A stretch of 64,000 bases of DNA from Balanoglossus misakiensis (lineage: Eukaryota; Animalia; Hemichordata), in contig CM082580.2 in the NCBI GenBank assembly GCA_040954595.2, forward strand, positions 1,602,783 to 1,666,782. Direction: 5' to 3'. Numbering within the stretch: position 1 is the first letter of the stretch; each line of letters begins with the position of its first letter. Made by a program: the position numbers and the translations under genes. Positions 10,601 through 33,686 of the stretch are shown here, one piece after another. A model generated the notes under the pieces. That model saw only the letters and a list, made by a program, of their open reading frames with translations, had not been told where the DNA came from and did no database searches.

Positions 10601-10847
10601 GGGTCCCCATAGAAGCCAAAACAGCAAAAAAATCAATTTTAGCACAAAAATCCTACGGGAATACACATCATACCACAAAACGGAAGTACCCCCCCCCCCC
10701 GAGAAAAATATGATGGAGGGGCCCTTAAAATTTCACCCCATCATTTTCGGGTAGTTGGGTCCCAATAGAAGCCAAAACAGCAAAAAAATCAATTTTAGCA
10801 CAACAATCCTACGGGAGCTGTTTTTCATGACATACCATACCGCACTA
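7699..10847 (-). mobile_element. Non-autonomous Academ-type DNA transposon (internal deletion derivative) with long, internally repetitive TIRs
   Basis: Termini TAGTGTGGTATG (7699) and CATACCGCACTA (10847). 3-bp TSD ACT at 7696-7698 and 10848-10850; removal restores the satellite variant TTTTCGACTGCAAAATCTC. Arms ~7699-8560 and ~10030-10847 are inverted copies built of ~160-180-bp subrepeats with poly-G/C tracts. TAG..CTA ends with a 3-bp TSD fit Academ. Confidence 0.85.
8886..9119 (-). pseudogene. C-terminal remnant of an Academ-type transposase (Cys-rich CXC-like domain)
   Basis: LPPIKKNGWKSENGVFYPVKCLALPAPKAVLELIKCGCKAGCRGRCSCSKNDLLCTPLCKC fits the P..GW...P...PAP..L..I.C.CK..C...CSC...L.CT..C.C C-terminus of Academ proteins, and it lies between the TIRs. 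Confidence 0.75.
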
Positions 10848-13300
10848 ACTGCAAAATCTCAAAATTTGGTCGATTTTTGAAAAAAATCATGGTGAAAATC
10901 ATCAAAAAATGACAAATTTTTGATTTTGCAAAATCTCAAAATTTCGTCGATTTTGAAAAAAATTATGGGTTCGTCGATTTTTGAAAAAAAACATGGGTGA
11001 ATTTTCGACTTTGCAAAATCTCAAAATTTCATCGATTTTGAAAAAAATCATGGGTTCGTTGATTTTTTAAAAAAACATGGGTGAATTTTCGACTTTGCAA
11101 AATCTCAAAATTTCGTCGATTTGGAAAAAAAATCATGGGTTCGTTGATTTTTAAAAAAAAACATGGGTGAAAATCATCAAAAAATGAAAAATTTTCGATT
11201 TTCCAAATCTCAAAAGTTCGCCGATTTTGAAAAAAAATCATGGGTTCGTCGATTGTTTAAAAAAAACATGGGTGAAAATCAACAAAATGACAAATTTTCG
11301 ACTGCAAAATCTCAAAATTTCGTCGATTTTTGAAAAAAAACATGGGTGAAAATCATCAAAAAATGACAAATTTTCGACTTTGCAAAATGTCAAAATTTCG
11401 TCGATTTTGAAAAAAATTATGGGTTCGTCGATTTTTGAAAAAAATCATGGGTGAAAATCTTCAAAAAATGACAAATTTTCGACTGCAAAATCTCAAAATT
11501 TCGTCGATTTTCGAAAAAAAATAATGGGTGAAAATCATCAAAAAAATGACAAATTTTTGATTTTGCAAAATCTCAAAATTTCGTCGATTTTGAAAAAAAA
11601 TCACGGGTTCGTCGATTTTTTTAAAAAACATGAGTGAAAACCATCAAAAAATGACAAATTTAAGACTGCAAAATCTTAAAATTTCGTCGACTTTTGAAAA
11701 AAAGCATGGGTTCGTTGATTTTTTAAAAAAACATGGGTGAAAATCATCAAAAATTTACAAATTTTCGACTGCAAAATCTCAAAATTTCGTCGATTTTTGA
11801 AAAAAAAATCATGGGTGAAAATCCTCAAAAAAACGACAAATTTTTGATTTTGCAAAATTTCAAAATTTCGTCGATTTTGAAAAAAAATCATGGGTTCGTT
11901 GATTTTTTAAAAAAACATGGGTGAAAATCATCAAAAAATGAAAAATTTTCGACTTTGCAAAATCTCAAAATTTCGTCGATTTTGAAAAAAATTATGGGTT
12001 CGTCGATTTTTGAAAAAAAATCATGGGTGAAAATCATCAAAAAATGACAAATTTTCGATTTTGCAAAATCTCAAAAGTTCGTCGATTTTTGAAAAAAAAA
12101 TCATAGGCTATAGCTCATGAAAATCATCAACAAATGTCAAATTTTCAACTTTGCGAAATCTCAAAATATCGTCGATTTTTGAAAAAAAAAACATGGGTGA
12201 AAATCATCAAAAAATGACAAATTTTCGACTTTGCAAAATCTCAAAATTTCGTCGATTTTGAAAAAAAATATGGGTTCGTCGATTTTTGAAAAAAATCATG
12301 GGTGAAAATAATCAAAAAATGACAAATTTTCGACTGCAAATCTCAAAATTTCGTCGATTTTTGAAAAAAAATCATGGGTGAAAATCATCAAAAAAATGAC
12401 AAATTTTTGATTTTGCAAAATCTCAAAAATCACGGGTTCGTCGATTTTGAAAAAAATCACGGGTTCGTCGATTTTTTAAAAAAACATGGGTGAAAACCAT
12501 CAAAAAATGACAAATTTTCGACTGCAAAATCTCAAAATTTCGTCGATTTTTGAAAAAAAACATGCGTTCGTCGATTTCTGAAAAAAAAAATTTTTGATTT
12601 TGCAAAATCTCAAAAATCACGGGTTCGTCGATTTTGAAAAAAATCACGGGTTCGTCGATTTTTTAAAAAAACATGGGTGAAAACCATCAAAAAATGACAA
12701 ATTTTCGACTGCAAAATCTCAAAATTTCGTCGATTTTTGAAAAAAAACATGCGTTCGTCGATTTCTGAAAAAAAAAACATGGGTGAAAATCATCAAAAAA
12801 TGACAAATTTTTGATTTTGCAAAATCTCAAAATTTCGTCGATTTTGAAAAAAAATCACGGGTTCGTCGATTTTTTAAAAAAACATGGGTGAAAACCATCA
12901 AAAAATGACAAATTTAAGACTGCAAAATCTCACAATTTCGTCGACTTTTGAAAAAAAACATGGGTTCGTCGATTTTTGAAAAAAAAACATGGGTGAAAAT
13001 CATCAAAAAATGAAACATTTTAGACTGCAAAATCTCAAAATTTCGTCGATTTTGAAAAAAATTATGGGTTCGTCGATTTTTAAAAAAAAATCATGGGTGA
13101 AAATCATAAAAAAATGACAAATTTTCGAGTTTGCAAAATCTCAAAATTTCGTAGATTTTTGAAAAAAATCATGGGTGAAAATCATCAAAAAATGAAAAAT
13201 TTTCGACTTTGCATAATCTCAAAATTTCGTCGATTTTGAAAAAAATCATTGGTTCGTCGATTTTTGAAAAAAAAACATCGGTGAAAATCACCAAAAAAAA
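10848..13300 (-). repeat. Satellite A, inverted orientation (second block)
   Basis: The array resumes in register after the ACT TSD and ends abruptly at ~13300. Confidence 0.95.
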
Positions 13301-14285: not shown

Positions 14286-16253
14286 CTGTTGTGATTATTG
14301 CTGGAATAGGCAATGTTTTAATCTGCCTGCAAAGACTCGTGTGACAAAGATTGTCGGCCAGTCAACATCACCAACGATATTAACAATATAAAATAAGTAA
14401 AATTTCAACGATTCAACTTCTTTTCTAGCTTCCTATCTGGATAGTTTGTTTTTTTTACTCTAAAGATCGCCTTTCTTCCAGGCCACGTGGCAAGAGACGT
14501 TATCAACTTCTACTATGATCGATGCGAGAGTACTATAGTATTCTCATATACACAGACAAAGGCCACCAAAATAAGAGAATCATTTGGTCAAATGGTAGAG
14601 GGCGCAAAAACAGATATTTCAAATGACAAAATTTTCCGATAAACGTGTTTAATCAAATCAAACTGTGCTCAATGGTATGCTTGCAAAAATTGAATACAAA
14701 TGAAACAAAACACAGCAACTGCCATGAACAAGAAGTTTATTCATGTCAAAATTCAATTTTTTTGAATCATTGATTTCAATTATCAGCTGAAAACTAAAAT
14801 TAGATTGTCATCTTGAACAGTATAAAATCAGCGAGCCATTAGACATTAAGTACCCAGCATACTAAAATAAAACCATGTAAACATGCACAATTAGATAATC
14901 AAATAATTTTTATTTATTCACCATGATGTTTTTAATGTATGTCAAGTCAAAGTACTTGAAGTTATGGACGATCAATTAAAATAGAAAACTGTAATTTTAA
15001 TGGCTGGGTAATGTATCCAATTTCTGCCCAATATATGAAATTTCCGAGTTAGCAACTGAAGAATTCGTGGGGAAAATAGTTACGTGATGTGTAACAGAAT
15101 TCACTTGGAAGTAAGGAGTTTTTGTAAAATCAACATGCATATTACAATTTATTTGAAAAAACTTGATTGGCAATGGAAAATTGGCGTTTAAATATATAGT
15201 ACTTCAAGATGAACAGATAAAATATAAGTTATTACAGATGTCATTTTACGACAACAAGGAATGGTAAATCGTTCTTTAATATCTTTAAAGATGCCAGGTC
15301 AAAGGTCACCTTTGCAAATTCAACCACTGGTACCATAGCCATTTCAAATGTAGCCAAAAGTGCGCCACCACTTTCTTCAAACATACTGAAACCATCTACA
15401 GGTTACCGTAGTCATATATCTCTTGGCATCCATGGCAGTTTAGCTAGTCATGAGCTGGCAAGGGGTGACCTGTAAGCTTTAAACTCTGGCTTCGGTAATG
15501 TCGACTCTGGCTCTGGCATATACTTGCAGGTCCATATGACCTTGGGGTGAACATGGTCATGAAGAAATAAATAGAATCTGTTTGGTGCATTGTCAACTTC
15601 ATTTTATAGTTTCAAAAAATTACAATATGATGAGTAATATTGTTGTTGTTTTCAAAGAGACTCACCACACACTTTAGTAAATCAATGACTTGAAAAAGTT
15701 TTGAGGACTATCATTTGTCAGAATCTCGGACCGCGAGGCACATACTACCTTAAATAGTTTCACTCGCAGCTTCTTGTGGGCAGTTTCTCCTTGCGTACCT
15801 GTACAGACACACCAGGAGGCCGTTCCCGATGAACAACTCAACCCACATGAAAACATTCAAGCGTCTGGTCACACCCATTTCCGTCAAACAAGAACATGAA
15901 TGAAACTGCGGAGGAAGAGAACGGGAGAGTGCCCATTAACCCTGTAATGACCAATCATTTACTGGAACAAGGTTCAGGATGTACGATCACTGGAGTTGAA
16001 AATAAGGTCATGGATTTGAAAATTATTTTGAGTTATGAAATTGAAAATACATATTTTTCATTGTGGATTCTCCGACATAAATATTATCAAAAACAATAAG
16101 GGTTGTCTTTTTAATTTATGACATATAACGCCATGAATCTAGCCCATTAATACAAAGGCAATACTAAAACACATTTCGGGTTAGCGTTATGACAACTTGA
16201 AGAAAGTATGAATACAAACTTTCTAAAGTAATATTTTAAAGGTTGGCGTATTG
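14286..16253 (+). repeat. Segmental duplication, copy 1 (~1.97 kb; partner 31185-33153)
   Basis: Starts CTGTTGTGATTATTGCTGGAATAGGC and ends GGTTGGCGTATTG in both copies; offset ~16.9 kb. Paired ORFs 15896/32797 and 15674/32575 are nearly identical. Confidence 0.95.
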
Positions 16254-16367
16254 ATTACAGCTTGTTTGTTCTGCTATTAATGGAAATTCGGTTAGAGCCG
16301 TTTGAGGCAACTCTTATTCTGTCAAAGTTATGGCGTTAACTTATTCTGATAAAGTTATGTTAACGCT

Positions 16368-16476
16368 AATCTGATTAAAATCAGATGTAGGGAACGGCGA
16401 CGTGTTTTTTATGCTGTCGCAGCATCAAAAAACTACGTCGCCATTCCCTAGGCCTACATCTGATTTCAAACAGATT
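16368..16476. mobile_element. Short hairpin MITE-like element (related copy at 16738-16840)
   Basis: AATCTGATTAAAATCAGATGTAGG...CCTACATCTGATTTCAAACAGATT fold-back. A second diverged copy with the same AATCTG...CAGATT ends lies at 16738-16840. Confidence 0.6.
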
Positions 16477-16510
16477 GTGTTAACATCAGGAACACTTTAC
16501 ATACATAAAC

Positions 16511-16721
16511 TACTGTAAAACACTTTATTTTAGCGAGTTGAAATTTTCACGATATCGAGAGAGGCTACTGTTTCGCGAGTATTAATTTTCGCGTTCTCTT
16601 ATTTCATTCACTGCATCGTTATCTTCAAAAATAATTATGCGACCTCTTATTTTCATACCATTTTGGCTCTCACGTATCTCGCGAAAATGTATTGCTCGCG
16701 AAAATAACTTGTTTCACAGTA
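16511..16721. mobile_element. MITE with TACTGT...ACAGTA ends
   Basis: TACTGTAAAACACTTTATTTTAGCGAG at the left and CTCGCGAAAATAACTTGTTTCACAGTA at the right form imperfect TIRs; internal TTTCGCG/CGCGAAA subrepeats. Confidence 0.65.
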
Positions 16722-17152
16722 TATGCAAATATGCAGTAATCTGAATAAAATCAGATGTATGGTACGACGACGTCTTTTACTTATGTGGTACAGTATTATT
16801 AGTATGCTGTCGTCATACCAACTGCGATTTTAGTCAGATTGTATGTACGTCAACACTGATTGTTGTGGCTGCCTTAAATAGGTTTTCACTTTGCGCTACC
16901 TCTATACGTAACGCGTTCACTCAGTAGACCAAAGTACACGGATGTCCAGCAGACAAGAGTTCCTGTTTATACCATGAGGCTAGAAGACTGTATTGTGTTA
17001 TTATACAGTGGTGCAGTCTAGATTTTAGTGAGGGATTGAAGCGAATCCAATTGCTTGCTTGAAACTCGCCCATCGTGATTGTGCATTGATAAAATACAAT
17101 AATCATACCACAGAAACATAAATTCCAGCTGCGCCTATCAGCGAGATTGTCA

Positions 17153-18080
17153 TAGCCTGGAGACCAGGGCGTCGGGGAAAAGAAACGCCCGGGGACAGTC
17201 TCTATTTACGAACAGAATTCTGTTCGTAGAACGACACGTGTGGTAAATCTTGCGTGTAAGCTAATTGGTCACTCAATGTTAACCACATGACATCGTCGCC
17301 TTCTAAATAAGGAAATAGAGGTGGAGTCATGTGTGAAATTCCCGCGATGGGATGTGGGAGTGGTTTTGAAAGTGTATGAATATTCATAACCAAGCTTTGT
17401 TAAAGGCACGTAAGGTGTAACTTTTGGGATAATTTTCATAATTTTTGTTTCAAACTGCACTACCATTAGTCCATGCAGATGGAGGTAGTGAACAATACAC
17501 AAGCATTATAAACCCTAAGTATGAGTGCATATGCAAGTTTTAACCAGATAAATAATAAAGCTTTGCCGCAAGCGATTATGGCCGCCACCGTGGGAAAATG
17601 CAAGAAACAATGAAAATGTTGCATTTCCGGTTGTGAAACTTCATAAACAAAACATGATCTCATCCACTTGAGCTCATGGAAGTAAATGTACACCACTGAG
17701 ACATCAGATTTTCATTTTTCATTGCAATATTGCGCTTTTTTTAAAATTGCAGGAATTTTCGTTTTTCTTTAATTTTTGGCCATTTTGTCATAAATAAGTG
17801 TTGAGCTTGATATATTATCATGAAATAGCATTTAATAGACATAATTAAAAGCATATATGAGATTATTTAAAACTTTAATTTTTTATCCAGTTACAGCTTA
17901 CGTGCCTTTAATTATATCATCCAACCACTGGCGCCCGTCAACATTTGATAGATCACTCGTTATCCATTTGTTACTAAGCGACCTCGATCGTTGCCAAGAC
18001 TACTATCTTTCAGCTCAGCAGGACTTGCTCGACTGTCCCCGAGCGTTGTATTTTAGATCGACGCCCTGGTCTCCCGGCTA
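17153..18080. mobile_element. Non-autonomous TIR element with 9-bp TSD (AcademH-like)
   Basis: TIR TAGCCTGGAGACCAGGGCGTCG / CGACGCCCTGGTCTCCCGGCTA; exact 9-bp TSD AGATTGTCA at 17144-17152 and 18081-18089; no coding capacity recognised. Confidence 0.85.
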
Positions 18081-18574
18081 AGATTGTCAATATATACGCC
18101 GCATGTTGCCAGCCAGGGCCCCGACTGACATTCCCTCTGAATATACACACCCCTCTATTGAAAATGGAACATTCCTGCAAGCAAAGCATGTTGTACTTGC
18201 TTACATCAGCTGTAGTGACTTGTGTAGACCCCCAGCGCGCGGCCTCTACTGTCTGTATATGGTCTGTCACAGTCCCCGGGAGTAACTGTCATGACAGAAA
18301 TCGGTTTGTCAACGGCAAAACGGAGATAAGGTGTTTTTTCCGAATATAGAATATTCAATTCTGTTTGATTCGGTCATGCCCAAAGTGTGCGTAGCTGTCG
18401 TCCTCTGACAACGCTCGCTCATATTTCATGCAGAGAACTTAAGTAGGTTCAAGCCAAGTTTTAATAGTTGGGCTAAGGTCTTCCCTGATAAGTGTTGAAA
18501 TGTTTGGGGTGTTACTGTCCGGGCTGTAACGACTTGGGTCGTGGAAAATGGGGGCTGAAACGACTGGGGCCGAA

Positions 18575-18630
18575 AGGGTCAGAGTGCCGGAACGACCTGT
18601 TTAAACATGTCGTTCCAGCACTATGACCCT
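18575..18630. repeat. Imperfect palindrome at the end of a short-subrepeat element
   Basis: AGGGTCAGAGTGCCGGAACGACCTGTTT|AAACATGTCGTTCCAGCACTATGACCCT, preceded by GGGCTGAAACGAC-like subrepeats from ~18520. Confidence 0.55.
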
Positions 18631-19619
18631 AAAGTGTTACCTAAGATAGTGTCCAGCGTCTAGCCGTTATTGAAATTATAGACCCTGCAGCGAGACTGAG
18701 CATGATTTGTTGTTGTCATGAAACTCATCTCGTACTCCAGTCACTTTCATACAAAACGGCTATGAGTGTCCAATGGTCTTTGTTGAGACTGTTTGACATT
18801 GAATGGCATTGACCTCGCGGGAGGATATCCTTCATGAATACAATGCAGGATATAATTTACATTGGCAAAGGGCTTTGAGGTGCACCAAATTAGTAATTTA
18901 GACACACCTTAATTATTACATGCCACCCCAAACTTTTTTAAAGCAAGAAACAAAATTGCAGTGCTTTTCCAATGACGCTTTTTAAAATGTAGAATCAGAT
19001 TGTTTTCTTGTCGCTCAGGTGTCCAAAATAAATATAGCTGTGATCAATTCCTACTTAAAGCAAACAAAAGTAAATTGAGATGAATGGGCACGTCCGGCCC
19101 ATATTTGACCCATTTCACATTTTTTCTTTCTTAGGCTGCATTCACAAACACCTCTGGAGGGGGGGGGGGGGGGAATTCATCTTTTACCGCTAATTTTCAC
19201 ATGCCCCCCCCCCCCTTTCACAACCCGAAATATTTTGAAATCCCCCTTCCGAACTGCCAAAATTTTGAAATCCCCCCATTTTCTTTCACAGAGCAAAACT
19301 CATAACTCTGCTCAAGCGCTCCCATGAAAAGAATTTGAAACTGATGTTTCCCCTCATCAGTGGTTATTAAAACTGAACATTGTTTTTATTTTTTAAGTAT
19401 TTTGTATGATTATAATTAAAAAATATACAACTTAGCTAAAATGCTTAGATGAGTTAATCAGATTTTCAAAGTCCACCTAAAAGATCATTTAATCTTTCCA
19501 GGGTGCGGTTTATGTTGGAGATAGTATCAGTTAGGCTATTTCTCAGAAAATCAATGAACGATCTGCGGACACCCCGAATAATATGTTACCACAACGCTAG
19601 CCAGGAAGCACATGGGACA

Positions 19620-19930
19620 TTTCACAATGAGGCAGTGAACACTGGGGGGACCAGACTGACACGTTAACCAATCAGGGAGCTGTATGGTGAATAAATACAT
19701 ATTAATAAGACCTAACCTACAAGGTCCTGCATAATGAGGCAGTGAACACTGGAGGACCAGACCTACACATTAACCAATCAGGGAGCTGTAAAGTGAATAA
19801 TGCATTGTAATAAGACCTAACCTACAAGGTCTGGTGAATAATACATAGTAATAAGACCTAACACATAAGGTCCCTCCAATCAGCGAGCCGCAAGTGGACC
19901 TTAGAGAAGTGGATAAACCAATCAGAACAT
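19620..19930 (+). repeat. Short degenerate tandem repeat (~106 bp) with multiple CCAAT boxes
   Basis: AATGAGGCAGTGAACACTGG at ~19626 and ~19732; TAATAAGACCTAAC three times; CCAATCAG four times. Confidence 0.7.
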
Positions 19931-19974
19931 GTAATACGTGTGCATAGGACCTGTAATGTAGGTCATTTTGAAAC

Positions 19975-20384
19975 AGGACTAGTTCACCATGACCAACCAC
20001 ATGACCCAGGAAATCGATCTGCTCATAACCCACATAACACTTAGTTGGTCTCGCTGTTAACTTTGCCTTTCGTAGTCTGCTCATCAAATCTGTAATTGTC
20101 TTGATATGTTCTTCCCATGATGCAGTGTGGATCAGTATGTGATCGATATAGTTGTCTACGTTCTTCATATCTCTTAACAATCTTCTCATAATTCTGCTAA
20201 AAGTCGCAGCACTATTTACAAGTCCGAAAGGCATTTTGATAAATTGGTATAGCCCATCATGCGTGATAAATGCCGTCAATTGTTTAGAATTATCAGTCAA
20301 CGGGACTTGCCAATATTCTTTGCTGAGATCTACTTTAGTGAAATAGTGATCCTTGGATAACTTAGCAAAAAGCAAAAAGCTCAC
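19975..20384 (-). pseudogene. pol: Reverse transcriptase, C-terminal part (frameshifted, truncated)
   Basis: YFTKVDLSKEYWQVPL, TAFIT, MPFGLVNSAATF; YIDD is mutated to YIDH. Homology stops after FLGHVVGHGEL. Frameshift relative to the upstream ORF near 20370. Confidence 0.9.
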
Positions 20385-21991
20385 TCAGGTCTGGTGTAGG
20401 CTCTGCATCAAACACTGTTATGCGATTGAGCTTTCTCATGTCAACACAACAACGATTGGACCCATCAGATTTCTTCACCATTACCAGTGGAACAGCATAT
20501 GGACTCTCTGAAGGTTCAGCTACTCCCATCTTAATCATCGTTTTGACTTCATCTTTCACTGCTTCACGGAGTGCATGAGGGATGGGGTATGGCCTACTGC
20601 ATACTGGTGTTGGATCCATCAACTTGATGTCATGGAAACCCAGGTTGGTGTTACCACGAATATCAGTTAACATATCTTTGTAATTGATCAGCAACCTCCT
20701 CACCACTTGCTTCTGTATGTCTGACAAGTTGTCACATACATTCACATCTGCAGCAAATTCTTTCTGCTTGAATGCAGGAACCCGCAGTAAGTCATCGTTT
20801 ACTTTAACCCCTGTGTTCTCTTGTACTTCTGAAGATTCATAACTCTGCTCATCTATCACAGATACACACACAATCTCAAGAAGTCCAGCTGATACTTCAT
20901 CTAGCTGATAAGTTCTTCGATAGTACCTCTTCAACAGGTTGGCATGGAATGTTTTCACCCTATGACCAAAGTCAATCTTGTAATCCATATTGCTCGCTTT
21001 CTCCACCACTGGAAAAGGACCCTTCCAGTGCATAAGTAGTTTATTATGGTCAGTAGGTAGTAGCAATAACACCTCGTCACCTTTGTTGAACTTCCTCCAT
21101 TTGGCCTTTCTATTGTAGTAGGACTTGTATTTGCCTTGTGATATCTTCAGTTCTTGTCTTGCTAAATCGCATGCCTTCTTTAATTTCTTTTGAAGATCAA
21201 GGATGTATTGATAAGTCGTTTTGGTTTCTGGTTCACTGATCTCTCCAGTCCATAGTTCTTTCAAGATAGCCATTGGACCACGCACACTCCTCCCATAAAG
21301 TAACTCAAACGGAGAGAATCCTGTGCTCGATTGAGGCGTTTCTCTGTAGGCAAATAGTAAAGCATTCAGATAACGATCCCAATATGTTGGACGTTCCTCA
21401 CACATCTTCCTGAGCATGAGTTTCAATGTACCATTGAACCGTTCCACTAGACCATTGAATGCTGGGTGGTATGGGGTGGTAGTCATCTGCTTTATAGACA
21501 AAAGCCGGCTGACCTCACGCATCACATCTGATGTAAATTGAGTTCCTTGATCTGTCAGAATTTCACGTGGACACCCCACTCTTGAGTAGATGTCCAGGAG
21601 CGCCTCTGCAACAGTCTTGGTATCAATGTTAGTCAATGCAACAGCCTCCGGATAGCGTGTTGCATAATCAACAACAGTAAGTATGTACCTATTCTTGCGT
21701 TCAGTGCATGGATGAATAGGGCCAACCAGGTCTACTGCAATACGTAGGAAAGGGATATCTATTAGTGGCATACTTCCAAGTGGTACCTTGGTCACCCGTC
21801 CCTTTGGTTGTGTCCGTTGACATGAATCACAGGACTGACAGTAACGGGAAACATCTGATGTTAGCCCAGGCCAAACGAAGTTGCTGAGGATCTTGTCTGT
21901 GGTCTTGTGAGTTCCGTGGTGACCACCCAGCACTGATTCATGGGCTAGTCTCATCACCTGGTTACGATACACTCTGGGAACCACCACCTGT
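20362..21991 (-). pseudogene. pol: Integrase followed by RT N-terminus (Gmr1 pol segment)
   Basis: HHCC (AHESVLGGHHG..CDSC), D (AVDLVGP), D (LTDQGTQF), E (LVERFN), GPF module, then RT start (PYPIP, SPYAVPLVMVKKSDGSNRCCVDMRKLN). Confidence 0.92.
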
Positions 21992-22714
21992 CACTACAGC
22001 TTGAACGACGCCACCTATGGGCAGTATTTCCGTGGCAGCCTATGAAGCTCATGAATATTTAATTAGACACAGTAATGGCGTTCGCGATCGAACACAGCTG
22101 TCGATGCACAGCATAATTCGGTGAGTAATATTGCTTTATTCCAAGTTTTGTTTAGTAAAATTAGCAAGATGTCAGAGACAATATGAAATAAAGTTGCGAT
22201 TCTGCTGTGTTATTTATGTGTATCAGCCAAATAACTTGAACATTTTGATCACCCGCTGACAGTCCCTGGCCGTTGCTATAGCAGAAGCCGTCCTAAGCAA
22301 CCATAAACAAACACTAAAAATTACAACGATTCAGCTTCACAGAATTGTTTTTTTCAATTTGAAAACCATACGAATTTAGTCTTTTATACGTAAACATAGG
22401 ATTCCATGTTTAAAATGCTGCTACAAGCAATATGACGAAATCATACCAAGCGAAAATATACGACCCTGTGTGTTCCTTGGCAGCAGCACGGGTTACATTG
22501 ATTGTAATGGCGGCGCTTCGAATTTTCGGCGACATGGTGATATTGTTCATAGAATTGACAGAAAATAAGACCGTAACTGAAAAATCAGAAACCAATAGTT
22601 TGTGCTAAAATATATTCTTGATATAATTCGCTGGAAATTCGAGGGTGAAAACGAAATAAGAAAAAAATGAATGGGCGAGATTGTTATGGTAAGGTTACCC
22701 ACATTCTTTCTATG

Positions 22715-22912
22715 TCACCTTTGACCTCAATTTCTGGAGGAAGTATAATGAGCAGGTGTTTTGTTTTTGCTTCCCTCGGATAGATAATTATTGTAAAGAT
22801 ATTTCTCTTGTTCACCTTTGACCTCAATTTCTGGAGGAAGTATAATGAGCAGGTGTTTTGTTTTTGCTTCCCTCGGATAGATAATTATTGTAAAGATATT
22901 TCTCTTGTTCAC
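22715..22912 (+). repeat. 97-bp tandem duplication in the putative first intron of the transposase gene
   Basis: TCACCTTTGACCTCAATTTCTGGAGG...GATATTTCTCTTGT occurs twice in tandem, immediately before the acceptor CCCTTTTCAG (22921). Confidence 0.9.
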
Positions 22913-22937
22913 CCTTTTCAGGTATAGATTTAGAGCC

Positions 22938-25900
22938 ATGTGGGGCAAACTATTCAACAGGAGTAGCGCACTTCTTAAAAGTTTGTCTATTGTTATGCCA
23001 AATAGAAAAGGGAAAAGTTACTTCAACATAGGCCAGTGGGCAAAGGACCAAAAGATAGCGAGACAGGTAGCTGAAGAGAAGTGTTTACAACAACTATATC
23101 AGGAGAAATTGAAGACTAGATCTTTGTCTGGGAGCGTGGCCAACAACCTATTGGTAGTTAGAACAAAGAGAGGACAGACTAAACACAGGTTTAACTTAGG
23201 AGAGTGGTGTAGACAGAGAAAGAGAAAGAGAGATGAGGAAGAAAGCATAATTCAGGATAAGTTGAATAAGTTGAGTGCAGCTAGGAGACTAGTAAAAAGA
23301 TCCTCAACCCAGCTAGCTAGACTAGAGAAGAAGAACAGTAAGATTTGTGAGATCTTAGCTACAAAGAATAATAAGAGAAAGGTAAGCTAGATCAGATAAA
23401 TAGACTTAGTCATAATTTTAAAAATCTCAGATTTGTATAAATCCTCTTCAAATTTTAGCCCAAATTCGCTTTTTGAACTTCATGTCACATGATCCTGTGT
23501 AAACAATGATAACAAAATGGGTTCAGCTTTGATGCAAAACATCTAGGTTTTCCAACAAACTATGTATATTTTTTAGGATTTTTATTGCAGAAGTTGTCAG
23601 AAAAATACAGGCTACACGTGTGTATTTCTTATCAAGGACATTTAAATTAATGATTAACTTGTAAGAAGATTTTATTTTATATATAATGATTATATTCTAA
23701 TTAGTATATATTTATCACACACTTAATCTTTCAGATTCCTGTTGATGTTGTTAATGTGAAACGCTCTAAATGGGTCCACAAGAACACTGAAGTATGTGCA
23801 GATAATAGTGAATCTTTGAAGCTGTCGCGACGTCAACAGTATGAACGTAGGTGTGAAACCTTATCAGCAGCCATAAATATTCATGTAGCAACTACAGATG
23901 TAAGCCCAGCCAAAGGTATAAATAAACCGAATGTACTACATCCACCAAAAGCAGCACTTGATGGTTTGTGGTATACTCTTGTTAATTCTGCCACTCCTGA
24001 CCAAATGAAAACATTCTTCAGAACCTCTCCCCAAATCAGTAAAAAAGTAATGCCATCAGTATTTGATAAATACATCAGTAAATTTGAGAAAAGTGAGAAC
24101 AATTTGGTGAGGAGTGTCAGAACTATGTATGAGGGCGGAGTACTATCCAAACGAAAATATAACTGTCTGAGGCAGAGTGAACTTCAGATGTTCTCCAACT
24201 TGAAACATCCTAGGAAAGCAGTAGAAATTCATTCTGGCTGTAGAATACCAAGACTGCTCCCATACACAAAAGTTGTACAGTATGTAAGTAACCTTGACAT
24301 TGGAAATCTTGAGCCAATTATATCATCTGAAGGCAAACAAGTCGGCTTAAAAAGAAACCCTGAGGAGTTGCTTATTAAGATTGCCAGTTTATATTTAAAT
24401 ATGGGGGAAACACAGCCTGATATTCTTAACTGGTTCGGTAAACAGGAGGGCTCATTTCAAATCAGTATAGGTGCTGACGGGGCTCCGTTTGGCAAACATG
24501 GACAGGCCACTGCATGGCTAGTTAGTTTCTTGAATGTGACCCACCGTGTTGCTAGCCCAGACCACAATTTTCTCCTATTAGGGGCAAACATAAAAGAGGA
24601 TGACCCCATAATGATTGAATTTGCAATTGCATTGTCAAAAGACCTTGAGTGTATTGAGAAACGTAAATATAAAGTTGGCAGTCTTGATGTAACTTTTCAG
24701 GTGTCACTTTTACCCTTTGATCAGAAGGGATTGGCCAGTGTGTCTGGAGAACTAAGCAATGCAGCAAAGTATTTCAGCTCATTTGCTAACGTTCCAAAAA
24801 TGATATTGATTGTATTGGAGCAGAAATTGGCCCAGGTCAGAAGTGGGATGAATGGAAATATCAGAAAAGAATTAAAGATGCAGAAGCTGTTGAAAAGTTG
24901 AAGTCAACTAAGAAAATTAAAACTGGAAAGCCCAAAACAGTGCGACCCAAAATCACACAATTTATAGCCAGTCTGAGGTCAAGACAGGAATTTGTACCAC
25001 CGTTGGGTAGATTTATTGATTGTGCCAAGGCTGAGCCATTGCATTTAAAGAACAATGCATGGCAATACTACTTCCAACGATTACTGATTGACGCAGTTGC
25101 CCACACTTCGGAAAAGGGTCGTGAAAATGGAGTTAAAATTGAGAATCTACCTAACGAGTCATATCTGTACAAATTCCTGTCTGCCCTAAAATATCAAGTA
25201 AAAGCTGGAAAGTTGTATAATAAGATTGTAAAATACTTCAATGAAAATAGTGTCAAGTCAAATGCCAACATTAATGTGGTTTATCGCTTCACTGGTGAGG
25301 AGTCTCGCAAACTTGCTTGGCATTTCATAGGATTGGTATTAGCATTGAGAAGCGATACAGACAGACCAAAGCGTCGGGCTCAATTAGCTCTCTACACATA
25401 TACTGGTATCTTGCTTAGAGATATCACTTTGTTATTCTCACGATTCAACATAAATGAGGGAGATTTGCTTGTACTTAGGCATAAGTGTCGGTGGTACTTT
25501 AATCTACATTCCCTGTTTCTGAATGTCAATAATACTGTGTGGCACATTGGTTATGTAGTCCCAAAACACACCACTAGTATCTATAAGCAATTCAGTCTGG
25601 GATTAGGCCTAAACACAATGGAAGGCAGAGAGGCAAAGCATCTACGCCTGCTAGAATTCAGTGAAAATTCTACACCTCAAAATAGGTGGGCCCTCATATT
25701 TCGACACGAATATGTGATGCTTTTTTGGCTGAGGAACAAAAGTCCAAAAGCTGACAACTATAGAAATGCAAATGTAGGTCAATTTGAGCTTAAAGAAAAA
25801 GAAAAATACATTCCCAGTCGATATTATGAGAATGCAGGCTACTGTATGTGTGGCAATTTAAAAAAATGAAACAATGACTGCCTGTGAAATATGTGTTGAC

Positions 25901-25975
25901 CCAATTATGGATGACATAAAAAAAGCAGCTGTCACTGGTAAAATATCAAATAAACTCAAGAAACTTATGCTGTGA
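22938..25975 (+). pseudogene. Spliced RAG1/Transib-like DDE transposase (coding exons 22938-23381 and 23735-25975; two apparent 1-bp frameshifts)
   Basis: Phase-0 intron AAG|GTAAGC (23382) to TCTTTCAG|ATT (23734) joins the 161-aa and 381-aa ORFs in frame. Motifs: IGADGAP (D ~24476), PFDQK (D ~24719), EPLHLKNN, FTGEESRKL, GLNTMEGREAKH (E ~25630). Frameshifts near 24793 and in the A-run at ~25860-25866; the second restores a CMCG..CEIC tail ending TGA at 25975. Confidence 0.75.
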
Positions 25976-26827
25976 ACAATGATTGAATTTGAAACAGTGG
26001 ATTGTGTCACTGTGTGCTACTTTAGAATTAAAGGATAACTATAGTATTAATTACATTACAGAATTATAAAGACTCATCTGTAGTTGAGAGCTGCATTTAA
26101 TAAAAATGGAGATCACAAATCACATGAATTCACACTTTTTGAACTGGAGATGATATGTTTCTTATGGGATTTTGTATATGTGTGCATGTATGGGGACAGG
26201 GAAATTGAAACTTATCTTACCACTATTAAGTATTGTGAATAAACCCTTAATCGTATAGTGATTGCAGTGCTTTGCAAAATTAAAATGTATGACATACATA
26301 AGCTTGATAGAAAAGTTTTACATTTTTCTTGAGGAGTTGTTTATTCTGCACCTGCACGAAATTTTAATGAATTTGTGAAAAAATAAAGAATTAAGTCTCA
26401 TCAAATTCTTGATATTTATAAATTTTGTCATGGAATTAATTGTAAATATTAATTAAATTTAGACCAGAAATCCTGGTTAACTGTTAGATGAGCAGTTTTG
26501 ATTGACTTATCAATGTTGATTGTAGGTAACATACATTTTTTTCTGAAACTAATGAAAAATCTATGTTACAATAATGATGGAAAAAAAGAATTTTACAGTT
26601 TAGGAAATTTTGTAAACATTATCTGTTCATTTGTATTGAATGTAGATAAATAAAGACAAGTGATGAATTTTTGAGTCTTCTAATTTTCCTTTTTTTATTT
26701 GAATATATGTCAATTGTGAGAGGACTGTCTTGACAGACTGATACATCTACACTGAACAACATGTGCCACAGATCAGGAAAAAAATGTTCCTCAGATGGGT
26801 TGAATCAGTGTGAAAAATCAATAGGGT

Positions 26828-27478
26828 TCAGTTCTCTGGATGTAATGGAATTCCATGTTTGTTCCAGGCACCAAAGCTGAATCTAACAGCAACAGTCTCC
26901 CTGTTGATAAAATATTTCACAACACAGGGCTTCTCAGGTGTGAATATAACAGCTACCCTCTTTCCACGGACTTTCTTCTCTAGGATATTCTCTGTATGCT
27001 GACCGATAGCGCCCTCGTAGCAATAACCTTTCCGTATCACATACAATAGCTTCAAGGAACTTGTGAAGGTCAAGGTTATGATAGCCCTGGAGGTCTTCTC
27101 GTCGATACCAAAACCGGTCCGAGTAGCAAACTGATGAAAAACATCAAATACTTCCCTCGGCATTTGTCGTGTAAAGCTGCTTTGCCATGGTGACCTTAAC
27201 GACGGGGATGTTGACAGCCGAGCGTAGAAGGTCTTCTGCCAGTAGGTCATATCACGCTGAAACATGGGAAATACGGCGACGTCACGCCAACGAATCTTGT
27301 CCTTTGACAGCTTGTCGTTTCGAAATATGGCCCTTGTTGTCACATCCTCAAGTTCATCAAAGAGTGGGTGTATATACAGATTGTCCGACACGCATTTTTT
27401 ACGTTTAAGCACAGATTTTGCCTCTCGCAATTTGCGTTTTATAACTTTCTCGGCATCGATCAACACGGGCGCCGCCAT
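26828..27478 (-). CDS. Intact 216-aa protein of unknown function, second (convergent) gene of the transposon
   Basis: Uninterrupted ORF; strong start context CCAAGATGGCGGCG 85 nt inside the right terminus; basic NLS-like N-terminus (KRKLREAKSVLKRKK); minus-strand AATAAA downstream at ~26694-26699. Confidence 0.75.
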   Translation of the reverse strand: MAAPVLIDAEKVIKRKLREAKSVLKRKKCVSDNLYIHPLFDELEDVTTRAIFRNDKLSKDKIRWRDVAVFPMFQRDMTYWQKTFYARLSTSPSLRSPWQSSFTRQMPREVFDVFHQFATRTGFGIDEKTSRAIITLTFTSSLKLLYVIRKGYCYEGAIGQHTENILEKKVRGKRVAVIFTPEKPCVVKYFINRETVAVRFSFGAWNKHGIPLHPEN

Positions 27479-27562
27479 CTTGGCAATGCGTTGCTATGGT
27501 GAACATGGGAGCTCGCGCTTCGCGGAATACTGCCCAACATAGCTCTAGTATTTCCCGCAGTG

Positions 27563-29370
27563 TGTAACAGCTTTTCACCAAATTGGACCATTGGCGAATT
27601 GAACTCTCTGTACAGGATCCCATCTTTCATGATGAACTTCAACCTACCTCCATTCCTAGTCACTTTCTCGTCACCCAAAATTGCCTTCTCACGTAGTTTG
27701 TCAAGAGTGGAGTCTTCTTCTTGAGCTTGTTGAAGCTTCCCTGGCATCACCACTTCACCAACAGCTTTAGGTACTTTAAGCTCTCTGATTGGTTTTTGGT
27801 TGGCTATCTTCTGGGCTCTGGTCTCCACAGCATTTGCTAAACCTGGTACCTGTCCAACAGTTGTACACAGTCTACATGTCGGCAATGGTTCCTGCCATGT
27901 AGTATCAGGATTCGAAGGGTCAGATACACCATCAATGTTGCCCAGTATTAAATCATACACATGGTTCATCATGCACAGTGCAGTAACATCACCAACAAAG
28001 TAAGGGGTATCAACTTTTATAGAGGCTACAGGTACTCTTCTAATAGTCCCATCTATCAGAACACACGTCCTGTACTCACCAGTCAGCTGATTACTTGACA
28101 CCAGACTTCTTCGAACTACCACGCTACTACACCAACTATCACGCAAAACGCTAACCAGCTTACCATCGAGCAATCCCTTCATTACCGGCATCTTCTTCAC
28201 TCCATGGGCACTACAAGCAGCACTCATCACTGGGAGCTTATGACCACATGGTAACACGAACTCCTTATTCAGTGTTGCATCTGTTTTATCTATTTCCATT
28301 GCTACCACCATACATGCATAACCAGTGTCTAGTCCCCTGGGCTGTTGACGGTTGCCCCAATGTGTACATTCTTGTTTAGGTGGATAGTTTCTATCTTCTT
28401 CAGTTAACAATACCGCCGTCTTATGCATCTTTGGCTTACTTCTACAATCTTTGGCCATATGACCACCTTTACCACATACGAAGCACGTACCTTTAAAAAC
28501 ATGGGAACCATTGGTTTTGTTATTAAACTTATTTACTTGATTTGGATATACAGCAGGCTTGGTATTTGCTGTCGGCTGGCTCCTTGGATTATTCTTGGCA
28601 TTACTTGGCAGTTTCCACCACCCTCGGGCATCTAAGTATTTTGAGGCAGTAGATACCATCTCTTGGACATTCTCTGGCCGTCGCTCTCTAATGAACATTG
28701 CCATGTCTCTGGAACATACTCCAATAAACTGCTCTCGAAGTAACAGATCTGTAAGCCCATTGTACGTCTTTGGAGTACCAGCCAGTTCTACCCATCTGCC
28801 CAAATAGTCACCAATACGGTCCATAAACTTTTGAGCACTTTCATCATAATGTGGCATACACGAACGGAACTTGTCATGAAAACTCTCCTCACTTAACTGG
28901 TAAGCCCTCAATAACTCTGGTTTCAATTCATCATAATTATTTGCAGACGCTGCAGGCATTTGGTTGTATGTGGATACATCCTTACCTTGTAACAATATGC
29001 ACTGAGATTCACCCCCAGTCATCTTTTTCCCACTTCTGAGCAGTGGCGTAGCGCTGAAAACGTTGAAGGTACGCATCCATATCATCAACATCCTCACGAA
29101 AACCCTGTAGTCTCGGAGCACGCGCTTTGGCCAAATTATTTTCAGTAACCTGCTGTTCTGTATTTTCCCCTTTCAATTTTAATTCTTGTAAGTGAATTTG
29201 CATTTTCAGTATCTCTCTCTCATGTTCCTCGCGCCGCCTATTATCTTCTCTCTGCTCCTCTCTCTCAGTAGCCCTAAGATCCCTCTGTCTAATTTGTTCC
29301 TCTCTAACATAATCTTTTAAAGCAGTCCCTTCCAACCCAAATTTTCTCCCTATCTTAGATATTCTTTCTG
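27563..29370 (-). pseudogene. gag: Gmr1-like gag-protease (frameshifted)
   Basis: Coiled-coil N-terminus, DDMDAYLQRFQRYA, SCAN-like LLLREQFIGVCSRDMAMFIRERRPENVQEMVSTA, CCHC knuckle CFVCGKGGHMAKDC, protease LRDSWC (DSG degenerate) and DLILGN; frameshifts near 29000-29015. Confidence 0.88.
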
Positions 29371-29654
29371 CATATATGCTTTGCTGTATCGCGATTTACA
29401 ACCCCCAGTTTGACAACCCCTAGCAGTACAGGGCATTCAGCACAAGTCAACACAGCCAAACGCACGACGCAAACCAACACGGCCCATATTATATAGCAGG
29501 AAACCACAAGCGCACATACAGTAACAGTACCAGCCTACAGACCCAGCACCGTCTTCACAATTTGCAGAATCTCTACCTAGCAAAACCATGGTCTCCACTA
29601 TATGGCAACAATTTATGATAGTATACAAACAAATGCACAACAAAACGATAAAAC

Positions 29655-29671
29655 TCCCGGACGAGCCCCCA
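29655..29671 (-). promoter_or_regulatory. Primer-binding site complementary to tRNA-Pro
   Basis: Minus strand TGGGGGCTCGTCCGGGA, 2 nt after the LTR end ...TGACA; this is the canonical tRNA-Pro PBS. Confidence 0.9.
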
Positions 29672-29673
29672 AA

Positions 29674-30970
29674 TGTCAGAGGTGGAGGGCACCCCTCTGA
29701 TTCCAGGATAAATATTGAGCAGCTCTCAGTGCCAAGGAGTAAACATCCGTGGATAAGGTATGGGGAGAAACTACACAAACCAGTGCGGATACAATAATAC
29801 AGTTGATTTAATTTAAATCAATTAAATAATATAAAGATAATACTAGGAATATAATTTTTGTGCACAATATGCACAATATCAAATGTCTCTGTCCTAACCA
29901 ATTTAGCAGGTACAGGTATGCTGATACAATTGGTCATACAATACAATGGGTTACTTAATATATTACATAAATGAATATATTCACAATATCACTATAGTTT
30001 ATTGTCTATTGCATATTGTCTAAACAATGGTAAGTGTCACTTAGCTGTATATAACATTCATAGTAAACAATCATGATTCAACCACAATATGGGATGGAGT
30101 CCTGTATAGATGAACGATGTAGCGACGATCCACATTACACATACAATCTGTGATACACCATGTTTTCTACCACTTGTAGTCCTCCAGTAGTCAAGTAAAC
30201 ACACTGAAGACTGACTTGTTAGATGCAAGTCTTGGGTTAAATGGCTGAATGAAAAATCAACAAACATTGACTGAAATGTCCACCTTAGCAACTGTTCACA
30301 AATGAATACTGACGTTTCTCAATAATAATTATCAGAAATTTGGACTAGTTAAAGCGTCATGATTACATGTGATATCATGGAAAATTATGCTTTAACTATG
30401 ACCGTCCTATTACTTACAAATTGTCGAATTTGACATAAATATCCATAAAATATAAATTTAAGTTATAGTAAATAAATAAACAAATACATTACTTACACGA
30501 GAATTCTTCACCACACTTCATGCTCAGCAATACCGGGTCTATAGGATGGTTCCACAGAACTCTGCTTGGAGCAATTTCCAGCCACACCACATACGACCAT
30601 GCCAGCCACGCCAATCGCCCGACCACACCGGTTTGCACTGAATAAGCACAATTCTGCTTTCTAGAAGTACTGAATTTACTTCCACTCGAATTGCAGAAAC
30701 AGTGGTCCTGAGAGCACTAATGCGCGCTACAGCATTACATGGACACAGCAAGGTATGGTGCAATATTTCCCCTAGTATTTCTACTCACTGAGCAGGGAGA
30801 CCCGACTTGTTGCTCCCTTCAAGACCTAAATTGAAGTGTGCTCTCTTACTACACGAAACTTAGCTAACGAAGCCCTATTCATTAACATGACAATACACGG
30901 TGTCACTACACCTGAAATTATGCGGGCACCTGGGTTTCCACTGACTCCAGTACTACCTAATTATATGACA
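29674..30970 (-). repeat. Putative 5' LTR of the Gmr1-like element (~1.3 kb, single copy)
   Basis: TGTCA...TGACA termini; inner end abuts the PBS; outer end coincides with resumption of homology to 13952. No second LTR is available to confirm. Confidence 0.7.
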
Positions 30971-31184
30971 AGTTGGGACCGACAGTCGAGACCCATACAG
31001 CATTACAATCAACAAATAGTAAAAAAAATAAAAAAGTAAACAAAAAACAGGAAAACATTTTAAAAATACAAATAAAATTATGAAACTACTAAAAAAACAA
31101 AACAAAAACAAAAACAACACAAAAACACAAAACAACAAGCGAGGTCAATAAAGATTAACGCTTACAAAGATAGAAAAAGTAAGA

Positions 31185-33153
31185 CTGTTGTGATTATTGC
31201 TGGAATAGGCAATGTTTTAATCTACCTGCAAATACTGGTGTGACAAAGATTGTCGGCCAGTCAACATCACCAACGATATTAACAATATAAAAATAAATAA
31301 AATTTCAACGATTCAACTTCTTTTCTAGCTTCCTATCTGGATAGTTTGTTTTATTTTACTCTAAAGATCACCTTTCTTCTAGGCCACGTGGCAAGAGACG
31401 TTTTCAACTTCTACTATCATCGATGCGAGAGTACTATAGTATTCTCATATACACAGACAAAGGCCACCAAAATAAGAGAATCATTTGGTCAAATGGTAGA
31501 GGGTGCAAAAACAGATATTTCAAATGACAAAATTTTCCGATAAACGTGTTTAATCAAATCAAACTGTGCTCAATGGTATTCTTGCAAAAATTGAATACAC
31601 ATGAAACAAAATACAGCAACTGCCATGAACAACAAGTTTATTCATGACAAAATTCAATTTTTTTAATCAGTGATTTCCATTATCAGCTGAAAACTAAAAT
31701 TAGATTGTCATCTTGAACAGTATAAAATCAGCGAGCAATTAGACATTAAGTACCCAGCATACTAAAATAAAACCATGTAAACATGCACAATTAGATAATC
31801 AAAGATTTTTTATTTATTCACCATGATGTTTTTAATTTATGTCAAATCAAAGTACTTGAAGTTATGGAAGATCAATTAAAATAGAAAACTGTAATTTTAA
31901 TGGCTCGGTAATGTATCCAATTTCTGCCCAATATATGAAATTTCCGAGTCAGCAACTGAAGAATTCGTGGGGAAAATATTTACGTGATGTGTAACAGAAT
32001 TCACTTGGAAGTAAGGAGTTTTTGTAAAATCAACATGCATATTACAATTTATTTGTAAAAACTTGATTGGCAATGGAAAATTGGCGTTTAAATATATAGT
32101 ACTTCAAGATGAACAGATAAAATATAAGTTATTACAGATGTCATTTTACGACAACAAGGAATGTTCAATCGTTCTTTAATATCTTTAATGATACCAGGTC
32201 AAAGGTCACCTTTGCAAATTCAACCACTGGTACCATAGCCATTTCAAATGTAGCCAAAAGTGCGCCACCACTTTCTTCAAACATACTGAAACCATCTACA
32301 GGTTACTGTAGTCCTATATCTCTTGGCATCCATGGCAGTTTAGCTAGACATGAGCTGGCAAGGGGTGACCTGCAAGCTTTGAACTCTGGCTTCGGTAATG
32401 TCGACTCTGGCTCTGGCATATACTTGCAGGTCCATATGACCTTGGGGTGAACATGGTCATGAAGAAATAAATAGAATCTGTTTGGTACATTGTCAACTTC
32501 ATTTTAAACTTTCAAAAAAATAACAATATGGTGAGTAATGTTTTTGTTGTTTTCAAAGAGACTCACCATACACTTTAGTAAATCAAAGACTTGAAAAAGT
32601 TTTGAGGACTATCATTTGTCTGAATCTCGGACCGCGAGGCACATACTACCTTAAATAGTTTCACTCGCAGCTTCTTGTGGGCAGTTTCTCCTTGCGTACC
32701 TGTACAGACACACCAGGAGACCGATCCCGATGAACAACGACACCCACATGAAAACATTCAAGCGTCTGGTCACACCCATTTCCGTCAAACAAGAACATGA
32801 ATGAAACTGCGGAGGAAGAGAACGGGAGAGTGCCCATTAACCCTGTAATGGCCAATCATTTACTGGCACAAGGTTCAGGATGTACGATCACTGGAGTTGA
32901 AAATAAGGTCATGGATTTGAAAATCATTTTGAGTTATGAAATTGAAATACATATTTTTCATTGTGGATTCTCCGACATAAATATTATCAAAATCAATAAG
33001 GGTTGGCTTTTTAATTTATGACATATAACGCCATGAATCTAGCCCATTAATACAAAGGCAATACTTAAACACATTTCGGGGTAGCGTTATGACAACTTGA
33101 AGAAAGTATGAATACAAACTTTCTAAAGTAATATTTTAAAGGTTGGCGTATTG
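31185..33153 (+). repeat. Segmental duplication, copy 2 (partner 14286-16253)
   Basis: Colinear near-identical match to 14286-16253; an extra 25-bp match 30971-30995 = 13952-13976. Confidence 0.95.
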
Positions 33154-33686
33154 CTTAGCATAATCATTTTTCCGTTTGCTGTGACATTTGTCTCCCTGTG
33201 AGAGTTTAAGTAAATGTAGAGTCACGCAAATTAGGCAACATCAATATCCCATACGTAATTCAGTGTGTTTTGTTCGCATTTTTGGTTTTCATTTTGAAAA
33301 TGAACAAAGGACTTTCCTATCATTGACCAACACTCGTATGAATACATCCAAATTACCCAACTTTAATTTTCCTTAAAGAATTGGTCAGCTCTGCGAATAT
33401 ATTTCACCTGACCACTTCCTTTGCTAAGGAAGAGTGTTGTTTATGTAATAATATTTTTATAATATTTATAACTTATGTAGCACATTAAATCTCAACGTGC
33501 TTTAAGTTGTCCCATGGTCATTTGAGCTAGGATGTTGGACCTAAATATTCCATTCAACTCCCTGGGGAGCAAACAACATCTCACCATCATTAGAAATGCC
33601 AAATTACAGTGCTTTTGGCCACGTATTAACCTGGGGATTTACAGTTAACTTTAAATACACACGCATATGCATTTAATCCCCATGTG

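Follow-up and report, generated by a model that had tools for sequence, protein, structure and literature searches.

The stretch of Balanoglossus misakiensis DNA analysed here (64,000 nucleotides, called the window below) carries a DNA transposon of 5,571 bp at 21992–27562, the span that its two ends enclose (about 5.6 kb, with two genes). It lies within an LTR retroelement, which we take to be of the Gypsy type from its gag/pol motifs, and pol peptides of that retroelement adjoin on either side of the transposon, so that pol is interrupted. These adjoining peptides support the transposon boundaries, as does a perfect 3-bp duplication, TGT. The LTRs of the retroelement lie at about 14286–16257 and 31185–33157 and are 96.8% identical, and no target duplication was obvious outside this pair at the boundaries read (14286–16259 and 31185–33160). 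Large tandem arrays flank the region (window 1–13300 and 54250–64000, with units of about 79 bp and about 192 bp), the first of which switches orientation near 6790. The features of the locus, in window coordinates, are these:

14286–33157, minus strand: LTR retroelement, presumably Gypsy-type, recognized by its LTRs and gag/pol motifs, with pol split by the transposon
21989–21991, unstranded: left copy of the 3-bp target-site duplication TGT, from flank comparison
21992–21997, plus strand: left terminus, CAC-initiated, a likely cleavage determinant by analogy with the system described in PMC8289069
21998–22017, plus strand: left spacer, positions +7 to +26, from left/right comparison; the family's +6 motif is degenerate here
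22018–22028, plus strand: left distal block TGGGCAGTATT, positions +27 to +37, a putative and likely transposase binding site, from exact match and profiles
22715–22908, unstranded: perfect 97-bp tandem duplication upstream of the transposase, seen as a sequence repeat
22938–23381, plus strand: predicted transposase exon 1, 148 codons followed by a GT donor, from splice prediction on sequence only, with weak similarity to three related loci
23735–25975, plus strand: transposase exon 2, with the DDE core (predicted RAG1-type fold) and a C-terminal CxC..CxxC finger, from homology and a model
26828–27478, minus strand: ORF2, an intact convergent partner gene of 216 aa with a C-terminal GxWNxxGxPxH motif, member of a conserved family
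27526–27536, minus strand: right distal block TGGGCAGTATT, positions +27 to +37, by exact match
27547–27555, plus strand: inverted AGTATTTCC core within the right spacer, overlapping the +6 motif (CGGGAA inward)
27557–27562, minus strand: right terminus, CAC-initiated, read from the sequence
27563–27565, unstranded: right copy of the target-site duplication TGT, from flank comparison

Contigs from two sequencing runs (X1 and X2) of one sample, possibly the source, span both transposon junctions over window 21600–28000 with no branch, and no joint of an empty site was found in them over that interval, so that retroelement and transposon may have been amplified together. Contig depth is about 1500–1700 across the junctions, with one variant at 30; such depth is no copy number, and, in a comparison without a single-copy control, it may mean that many copies have this insertion in common. 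An independent insertion of the same element was not seen in the X1 and X2 contigs, and a single loose end of 8 nt, at 27564, is not enough to call a second insertion. The contigs also skip the 97-bp duplication, and the single window bases at 23000 and 24221 are likewise absent from those listed for the sample. The copy in the window may thus represent a minority variant, or it may contain assembly differences. Exon 2 of the transposase is frameshifted near 24791 (where one X2 contig has an extra base) and near 25860, and because of these two frameshifts the copy is likely inactive, to judge by its sequence.

Relatives of the transposase are numerous. A search with its C-terminal half gave 76 proteins among 3152 candidates and a profile search 331 among 7997 scored; the closest relative is from Ptychodera flava (75%), followed by proteins of corals, an anemone, a nemertean and an annelid at 32–44%, relationships that by themselves point to a hemichordate or a similar marine invertebrate as the probable host. 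No relative turned up among viral contigs. Among 61 aligned transposases the catalytic residues are conserved (D181 in 61, D262 in 60, E566 in 61), with 304 aa from the second D to the E, and an LH motif is present in all 61. A conserved CxxC, the C(2)C zinc motif, is absent across the same alignment, and H(4)H is incomplete, H545 being kept in 59 of the 61 and H540 in 24, with a tyrosine at the latter position in the window. Neither half of the transposase matched Pfam, and no Pfam family was common to more than two of the 61 proteins; a match of exon 1 to the Pfam entry HA fell below its cut-off. The exon 1 region (22881–23387) contains an FxIG(Q/E)W-like motif twice, and relatives from Lineus and Owenia have a similar one once, near the N-terminus. 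In Dendronephthya gigantea, the transposase core forms the end of a 1124-aa protein (P0209), possibly through fusion, domestication or an annotation error.

Sequence searches of the PDB gave nothing meaningful, and the comparison of the transposase with RAG1 is one of predicted structure. The model was made from the Ptychodera flava protein (P0001, 75% identical to that of the window and without its first ~200 residues) and reached a pLDDT of 91.7. It aligned with RAG1 (Z 21.7, rmsd 4.1, 465 residues aligned, about 10% identity), BbRAG1L (Z 20.1, rmsd 4.1, 460 aligned) and HzTransib (Z 14.6, rmsd 7.1, 381 aligned); the P element gave Z 12.0, and these matches stood well above unrelated entries. 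The Atlas placed P0001 in unnamed cnidarian clusters with RAG1 (TM 0.63), Transposase_21 (TM 0.62), DUF1280 and Plavaka as neighbours, and since the first two are tied no claim is made that RAG1 is closer than EnSpm. From the model, the transposase appears to be a DDE enzyme of RAG1/Transib fold. Two of the RAG1 alignments start at RAG1 residues 403–405, ranges that give first and last residues only and leave an NBD-like domain unproven; the nonamer-binding region of RAG1 is given as residues 387–480 in PMC1131882.

The partner gene, ORF2, starts 84 bp from the right end, and both transposon genes begin near the ends. Its homologues number 81 among 1.84 billion representatives, and the ten homologue clusters looked up are unnamed except for one uncharacterised nemertean protein. 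From the 212 related stretches of a metagenome scan the best 80 went into the analysis; several of the metagenome loci group with named cnidarian proteins on a quick tree. Within these best 80 of 212, ORF2 is convergent and downstream of the transposase in 34 loci, and in 30 of the 32 loci that have at least 1.5 kb of downstream DNA it is convergent. Its divergence tracks that of the transposase (Mantel r 0.55, reached in none of 2000 permutations, 16 loci), so the two are co-inherited, which demonstrates linkage and not function. In one locus grouping with nemertean and annelid transposases (L078, 2754–3890) the ORF2 homologue is split in two, apparently by an intron, and in Tubulanus polymorphus an ORF2-like domain ends a 613-aa annotated protein (P0141), again a possible fusion, domestication or annotation error.

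The ORF2 model (pLDDT 92) has six helices and seven short strands, arranged as a helical hairpin followed by an alpha/beta domain that ends in GxWNxxGxPxH. This predicted architecture, in a protein of 216 aa with helices and a small sheet, is not that of a RAG2-like partner with a six-bladed kelch and a PHD. The protein is basic, with a net charge of +17 for the window copy and a median of +9 over 75 aligned proteins, and no conserved cysteine pattern runs across the alignment. Pfam had no match to ORF2 and no family common to more than one of the 75 proteins, and a word-based search was likewise without a match. Foldseek against the PDB (best E 0.027) and a viral fold search (best E 0.0011) gave no clear match; a wide fold search with VIA reached Z 7.6 for the N-terminal helical hairpin only, and a second look Z 6.2, where the alpha/beta part did not exceed 5. 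These searches used the whole protein, and its C-terminal domain may have a known fold. An Atlas feature score of 0.93 for Argonaute N/L1/PAZ (140 of 256 features in common, low recognition) is a weak lead, and TIR-APAZ entries were weak too (E 0.075–0.17, TM 0.16). A complex of transposase and ORF2 modelled for the related locus L003 scored 0.00, in a run without alignments and with an uncertain partner fold, and is not evidence either way. ORF2 is likely a cofactor or regulator of the transposase, and a functional analogue, not a homologue, of RAG2.

The two ends of the transposon begin with CACTAC on the left and, read inward from 27562, CACTGC on the right, exactly as the first-pass annotation had them. 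The same annotation placed one 11-mer at positions 27–37 of both ends, and TGGGCAGTATT does occur exactly twice in the window, at the two sites listed above. Two matches at up to one mismatch are not rare per se (35 of 100 shuffles), and it is the register that matters: of 200,000 random pairs, 4 had a run of at least 11 matches in register within the first 50 nt. When left and right are compared, 5 of 6 bases agree at positions 1–6, 5 of 20 at positions 7–26 (chance level) and 11 of 11 at positions 27–37. The spacer, described earlier as non-conserved, is indeed so in this element, where 15 of 20 bases differ. Point decay of a once continuous repeat, which the first-pass annotation had allowed for, is rejected because that many mismatches are too many at the level of change in the LTRs: the probability of at least 15 mismatches in 20 is 1e-14 at a per-site change of 3.2% and 4e-4 at 20%, with the caveat that the transposon could predate the LTR pair if both were copied together. 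The inverted core reported in the right spacer is also present; it equals the 9-mer of the left end, the right end's own distal copy being one T shorter. A hairpin formed with it would not be unusually stable (z -0.55; 55 of 200 shuffles fold equally well), and no internal inverted word longer than 6 nt occurs in the first 45 nt of 25 related ends. The inverted core is real, but it is no family trait.

Those 25 non-redundant ends represent 17 families and were found by a terminal pattern search, except for one located by homology drop alone, so positions 1–10 of their consensus are circular. Redundant copies and internal-looking or unverifiable candidates were left out by eye (e.g., L006, L013, L034, L036, L061 and L078). 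For most boundaries a homology drop, a paired end or a duplication gives support, and for five (L008, L032, L045, L055 and L066) the pattern alone; related families are not independent, and the two identical 11-mers of the window count as one test. The consensus reads CACGCYGGGC, then a variable middle, AAAW at 23–26 and GGC at 29–31, and the first 10 bases of the window's ends differ from it. A profile of positions 27–36 made from the relatives alone ranked +27 on the window's ends first of 55 registers, and did so in 200 of 200 draws of one end per family, with 0.2% of internal 10-mers scoring as high. When each family was left out in turn, positions 23–36 ranked first of 51 shifts in 13 of the 25 ends, whereas a control block at 40–53 did so in 1; the information content of positions 23–36 exceeded that of 2000 of 2000 offset shuffles. 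The distal site is thus a family trait, and the fixed position that the earlier reading had staked itself on is borne out in distant relatives. Positions 12–22 ranked first in 8 of 25 ends by the same leave-one-family-out procedure, a weak conservation across families, so the spacer is not sequence-free. The profile of positions 6–11, the YGGGCA motif at +6, has another peak 21 bp further in, at +27 (mean -1.45 against -8.63, sd 1.92), although in only 7 of the 25 ends is the best local match to YGGGCA located exactly there.

Eight related pairs of ends could be compared, the two ends of family C coming from different contigs. Five pairs are near-continuous repeats, alike at 11–16 of 16 spacer positions, and three (L003 and families B and D) are gapped, alike at 1–9 of 16. 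An unconserved spacer is therefore no family rule, and the continuous repeats that were to count against the two-part reading do exist in most pairs, with three of the eight on its side. Together with the signal at positions 12–22 this makes the two-part appearance a matter of degree; on a quick tree, gapped and continuous ends do not form two separate clades. Both ends were available for ten related loci and both flanks for nine, with a 3-bp duplication in three (L003, L075 and L076), a 2-bp match in one and nothing of at least 2 bp in five; the duplications seen, including that of the window, are TGT, GAT, TAG and ATT. Their absence from six of the nine is probably due to assemblies joining different copies; L073 and L075 have the same left flank. 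One relative, L003, combines gapped ends with a perfect 3-bp duplication and two apparently intact genes (746 aa and 208 aa). Other structures were seen in individual loci: a second CACGCC end about 845 bp inside the left end and like the family's right end (L048 at 3240, also L047, L049–L052 and L057), an internal inverted repeat of 156 bp in family A (L010, 1014–1168 and 5277–5432), and an ORF2 fragment on the plus strand near the left end in family D (L073, 1165–1263).

Parts of this design are shared with known systems. Like RAGL/ProtoRAG elements (PMC8289069, PMC7204232, PMC10462144), the transposon has two convergent genes between CAC-initiated ends, a predicted RAG1-type transposase fold and ends composed of a terminal block, a spacer and a distal block (in ProtoRAG TR1, spacers of 27/31 bp and TR5; PMC8289069), and its C-terminal cysteine finger is analogous to the RAGL CTT*. 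It differs in the partner, which is of 216 aa with helices and a small sheet instead of a kelch propeller with PHD, in the duplication (3 bp here, 5 bp there), in having equal spacers, and in a transposase without C(2)C and with about 10% identity to RAG1. In Transib, a variable spacer of 23 bp separates the heptamer of each end from its nonamer (PMC1131882). The likeness to Transib extends to CAC termini, ends of about 37–38 bp in which an outer and an inner block are conserved and the middle varies (PMC1131882; bioRxiv 10.64898/2026.08.26.747230), the same fold (HzTransib, Z 14.6) and the 3-bp duplications that some Transibs give. Transib, however, has one gene and not two, its inner block is A-rich, 206–214 aa lie between its second D and E (PMC1131882) against 304 here, and SxxCxxC is absent here. 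Given the two-part ends with a variable spacer already published for Transib (PMC1131882) and ProtoRAG (PMC8289069), the end design is a variation on a known one.

With Chapaev3 and EnSpm/CACTA (CMC; PMC4079192, PMC12730594) the family shares CAC..GTG termini, a 3-bp duplication and the LH motif (61 of 61). It lacks their C(2)C, has an incomplete H(4)H and no Pfam transposase match, and adds a convergent ORF2; of the Chapaev3 set of C(2)C, LH and H(4)H only LH is fully kept, and the duplications TGT, GAT, TAG and ATT do not fit the TWA of Chapaev3 (PMC4079192). According to PMC12730594, all CMCT lineages and RAG1 have C(2)C and H(3-4)H in common. The element has the 5'-CA..TG-3' termini, the duplication within 2–5 bp (3 bp here) and, in the P0001 model, the RAG1/Transib-fold DDE of that assemblage; without C(2)C it is best described as a CMCT-like family lacking one defining feature. 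Three motifs of the family were not found in the supplement of PMC12730594, a weak search, since its long cells are truncated and it displays no CMCT alignment. The Transposase_21 cluster (TM 0.62), which belongs to the comparison with Chapaev3 and EnSpm/CACTA, counts among the structural neighbours. In plants, CACTA elements have a second protein, TnpA, that binds the ends.

Vertebrate RSSs, to which the ends had been likened, also have a CAC start, a poorly matched middle and a distal block. The comparison holds in that the ends are real, the distal block lies at a fixed distance and the predicted fold is that of RAG1/Transib. It fails in that both spacers are 20 bp, with no 12/23 asymmetry and no heptamer or nonamer consensus, that TGGGCAGTATT is G/C-rich and resembles the family's +6 motif and not an A-rich nonamer, and that relatives often have continuous repeats (five of the eight pairs).

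The boundaries with their duplication, the distal register fixed over 17 families, the conserved D-D-E and the co-inherited convergent ORF2 are established, and the reading we favour, with a probability of about 0.65, is that of a two-gene transposon with CAC termini, whose transposase, of predicted RAG1/Transib fold, likely cuts at CAC and grips the +27 site. Transposition would be by cut-and-paste, with a transposase dimer cleaving at the terminal CAC as described for RAG and ProtoRAG in PMC8289069, and integration would have a 3-bp stagger. A family end would be an imperfect inverted repeat of about 36 bp with two YGGGCA-like binding sites, at +6 and +27, the latter about two helical turns inward, so that both could be bound on one face of the helix. 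In most relatives the outer site appears strict and the inner loose; in the window element the outer would have drifted, above all at the left end, with the inner perfect, and recognition would then lean on the distal site. The +27 site is likely read by the N-terminal helical region (that aligning from RAG1 403–405 onward) or by the C-terminal cysteine finger. A model for such a shift may be found in RAG and RAGL, where, as reported in PMC10462144, the nonamer mode of RAG and the TR2 mode of RAGL are redundant and either can be lost.

Other explanations have to be weighed against this one. A true RSS-like system would have a short cleavage motif, a sequence-free spacer of fixed length, a nonamer-like motif bound by an NBD-type domain, and unlike ends. 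In the window element only the six terminal bases and the 11-mer match and the right end alone has an extra inverted core; three of eight related pairs are also gapped, and alignment to the RAG1-type fold starts within the nonamer-binding region (387–480 in PMC1131882). We nevertheless consider it unlikely, as the spacers are equal in length and weakly conserved across families, the distal motif is G/C-rich, five of eight related pairs are continuous, and the quick tree does not divide gapped from continuous ends. Recognition of the +27 block by ORF2 or a host factor instead of the transposase, for instance within the two end-proximal promoters, is quite improbable: the block is symmetric, keeps one fixed spacing to each cut site and echoes the terminus-adjacent motif, all of which fits end recognition better, even though ORF2 is basic, starts close to the right end, and both genes start near ends.

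The ends could also have started as a conventional, continuous inverted repeat and have decayed or been rearranged after insertion. The inverted core in the right spacer is what a template switch at that end would leave, the first 10 bases depart from CACGCYGGGC, and the comparison covers a single insertion of this element. Against this, the LTRs suggest ages at which point decay is excluded; the element still has an intact ORF2, a perfect CAC terminus on either side and a perfect duplication, and L003 repeats the gapped arrangement with a perfect duplication and two intact genes, so we hold decay or rearrangement to be very improbable. A cut at CAC with the +27 site as the grip remains the reading preferred here.

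The larger finding is the element itself, with two genes, a predicted RAG1 fold and no zinc motif, and not its two-part ends. The papers searched, a set outside Repbase, Dfam and most subscription journals, did not describe any element that joins a RAG1 fold to a convergent partner other than RAG2, and the family may already be catalogued. In the absence of a Pfam model, annotation pipelines call both of its proteins uncharacterised. Tentatively, and at somewhat under even odds, we propose an undescribed RAG1-fold lineage of superfamily rank, in cnidarians, hemichordates, nemerteans and annelids, that has lost its core zinc site, gained a convergent partner of a new family independently of RAG2, and in some members shifted recognition from the outer site to that at +27, much as in the step to RSSs with a spacer and a distal motif. 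If true, RAG1-fold transposases would have become paired with a convergent gene a second time and independently, and the two cases could be compared to see why RAG1 became dependent on RAG2 and whether the core zinc site is dispensable. L003, apparently intact and with gapped ends, makes this testable. A trade-off between terminal and distal recognition has been proposed for RAG and RAGL (PMC10462144), and the family would show how recognition passes from the terminus to a distal site.
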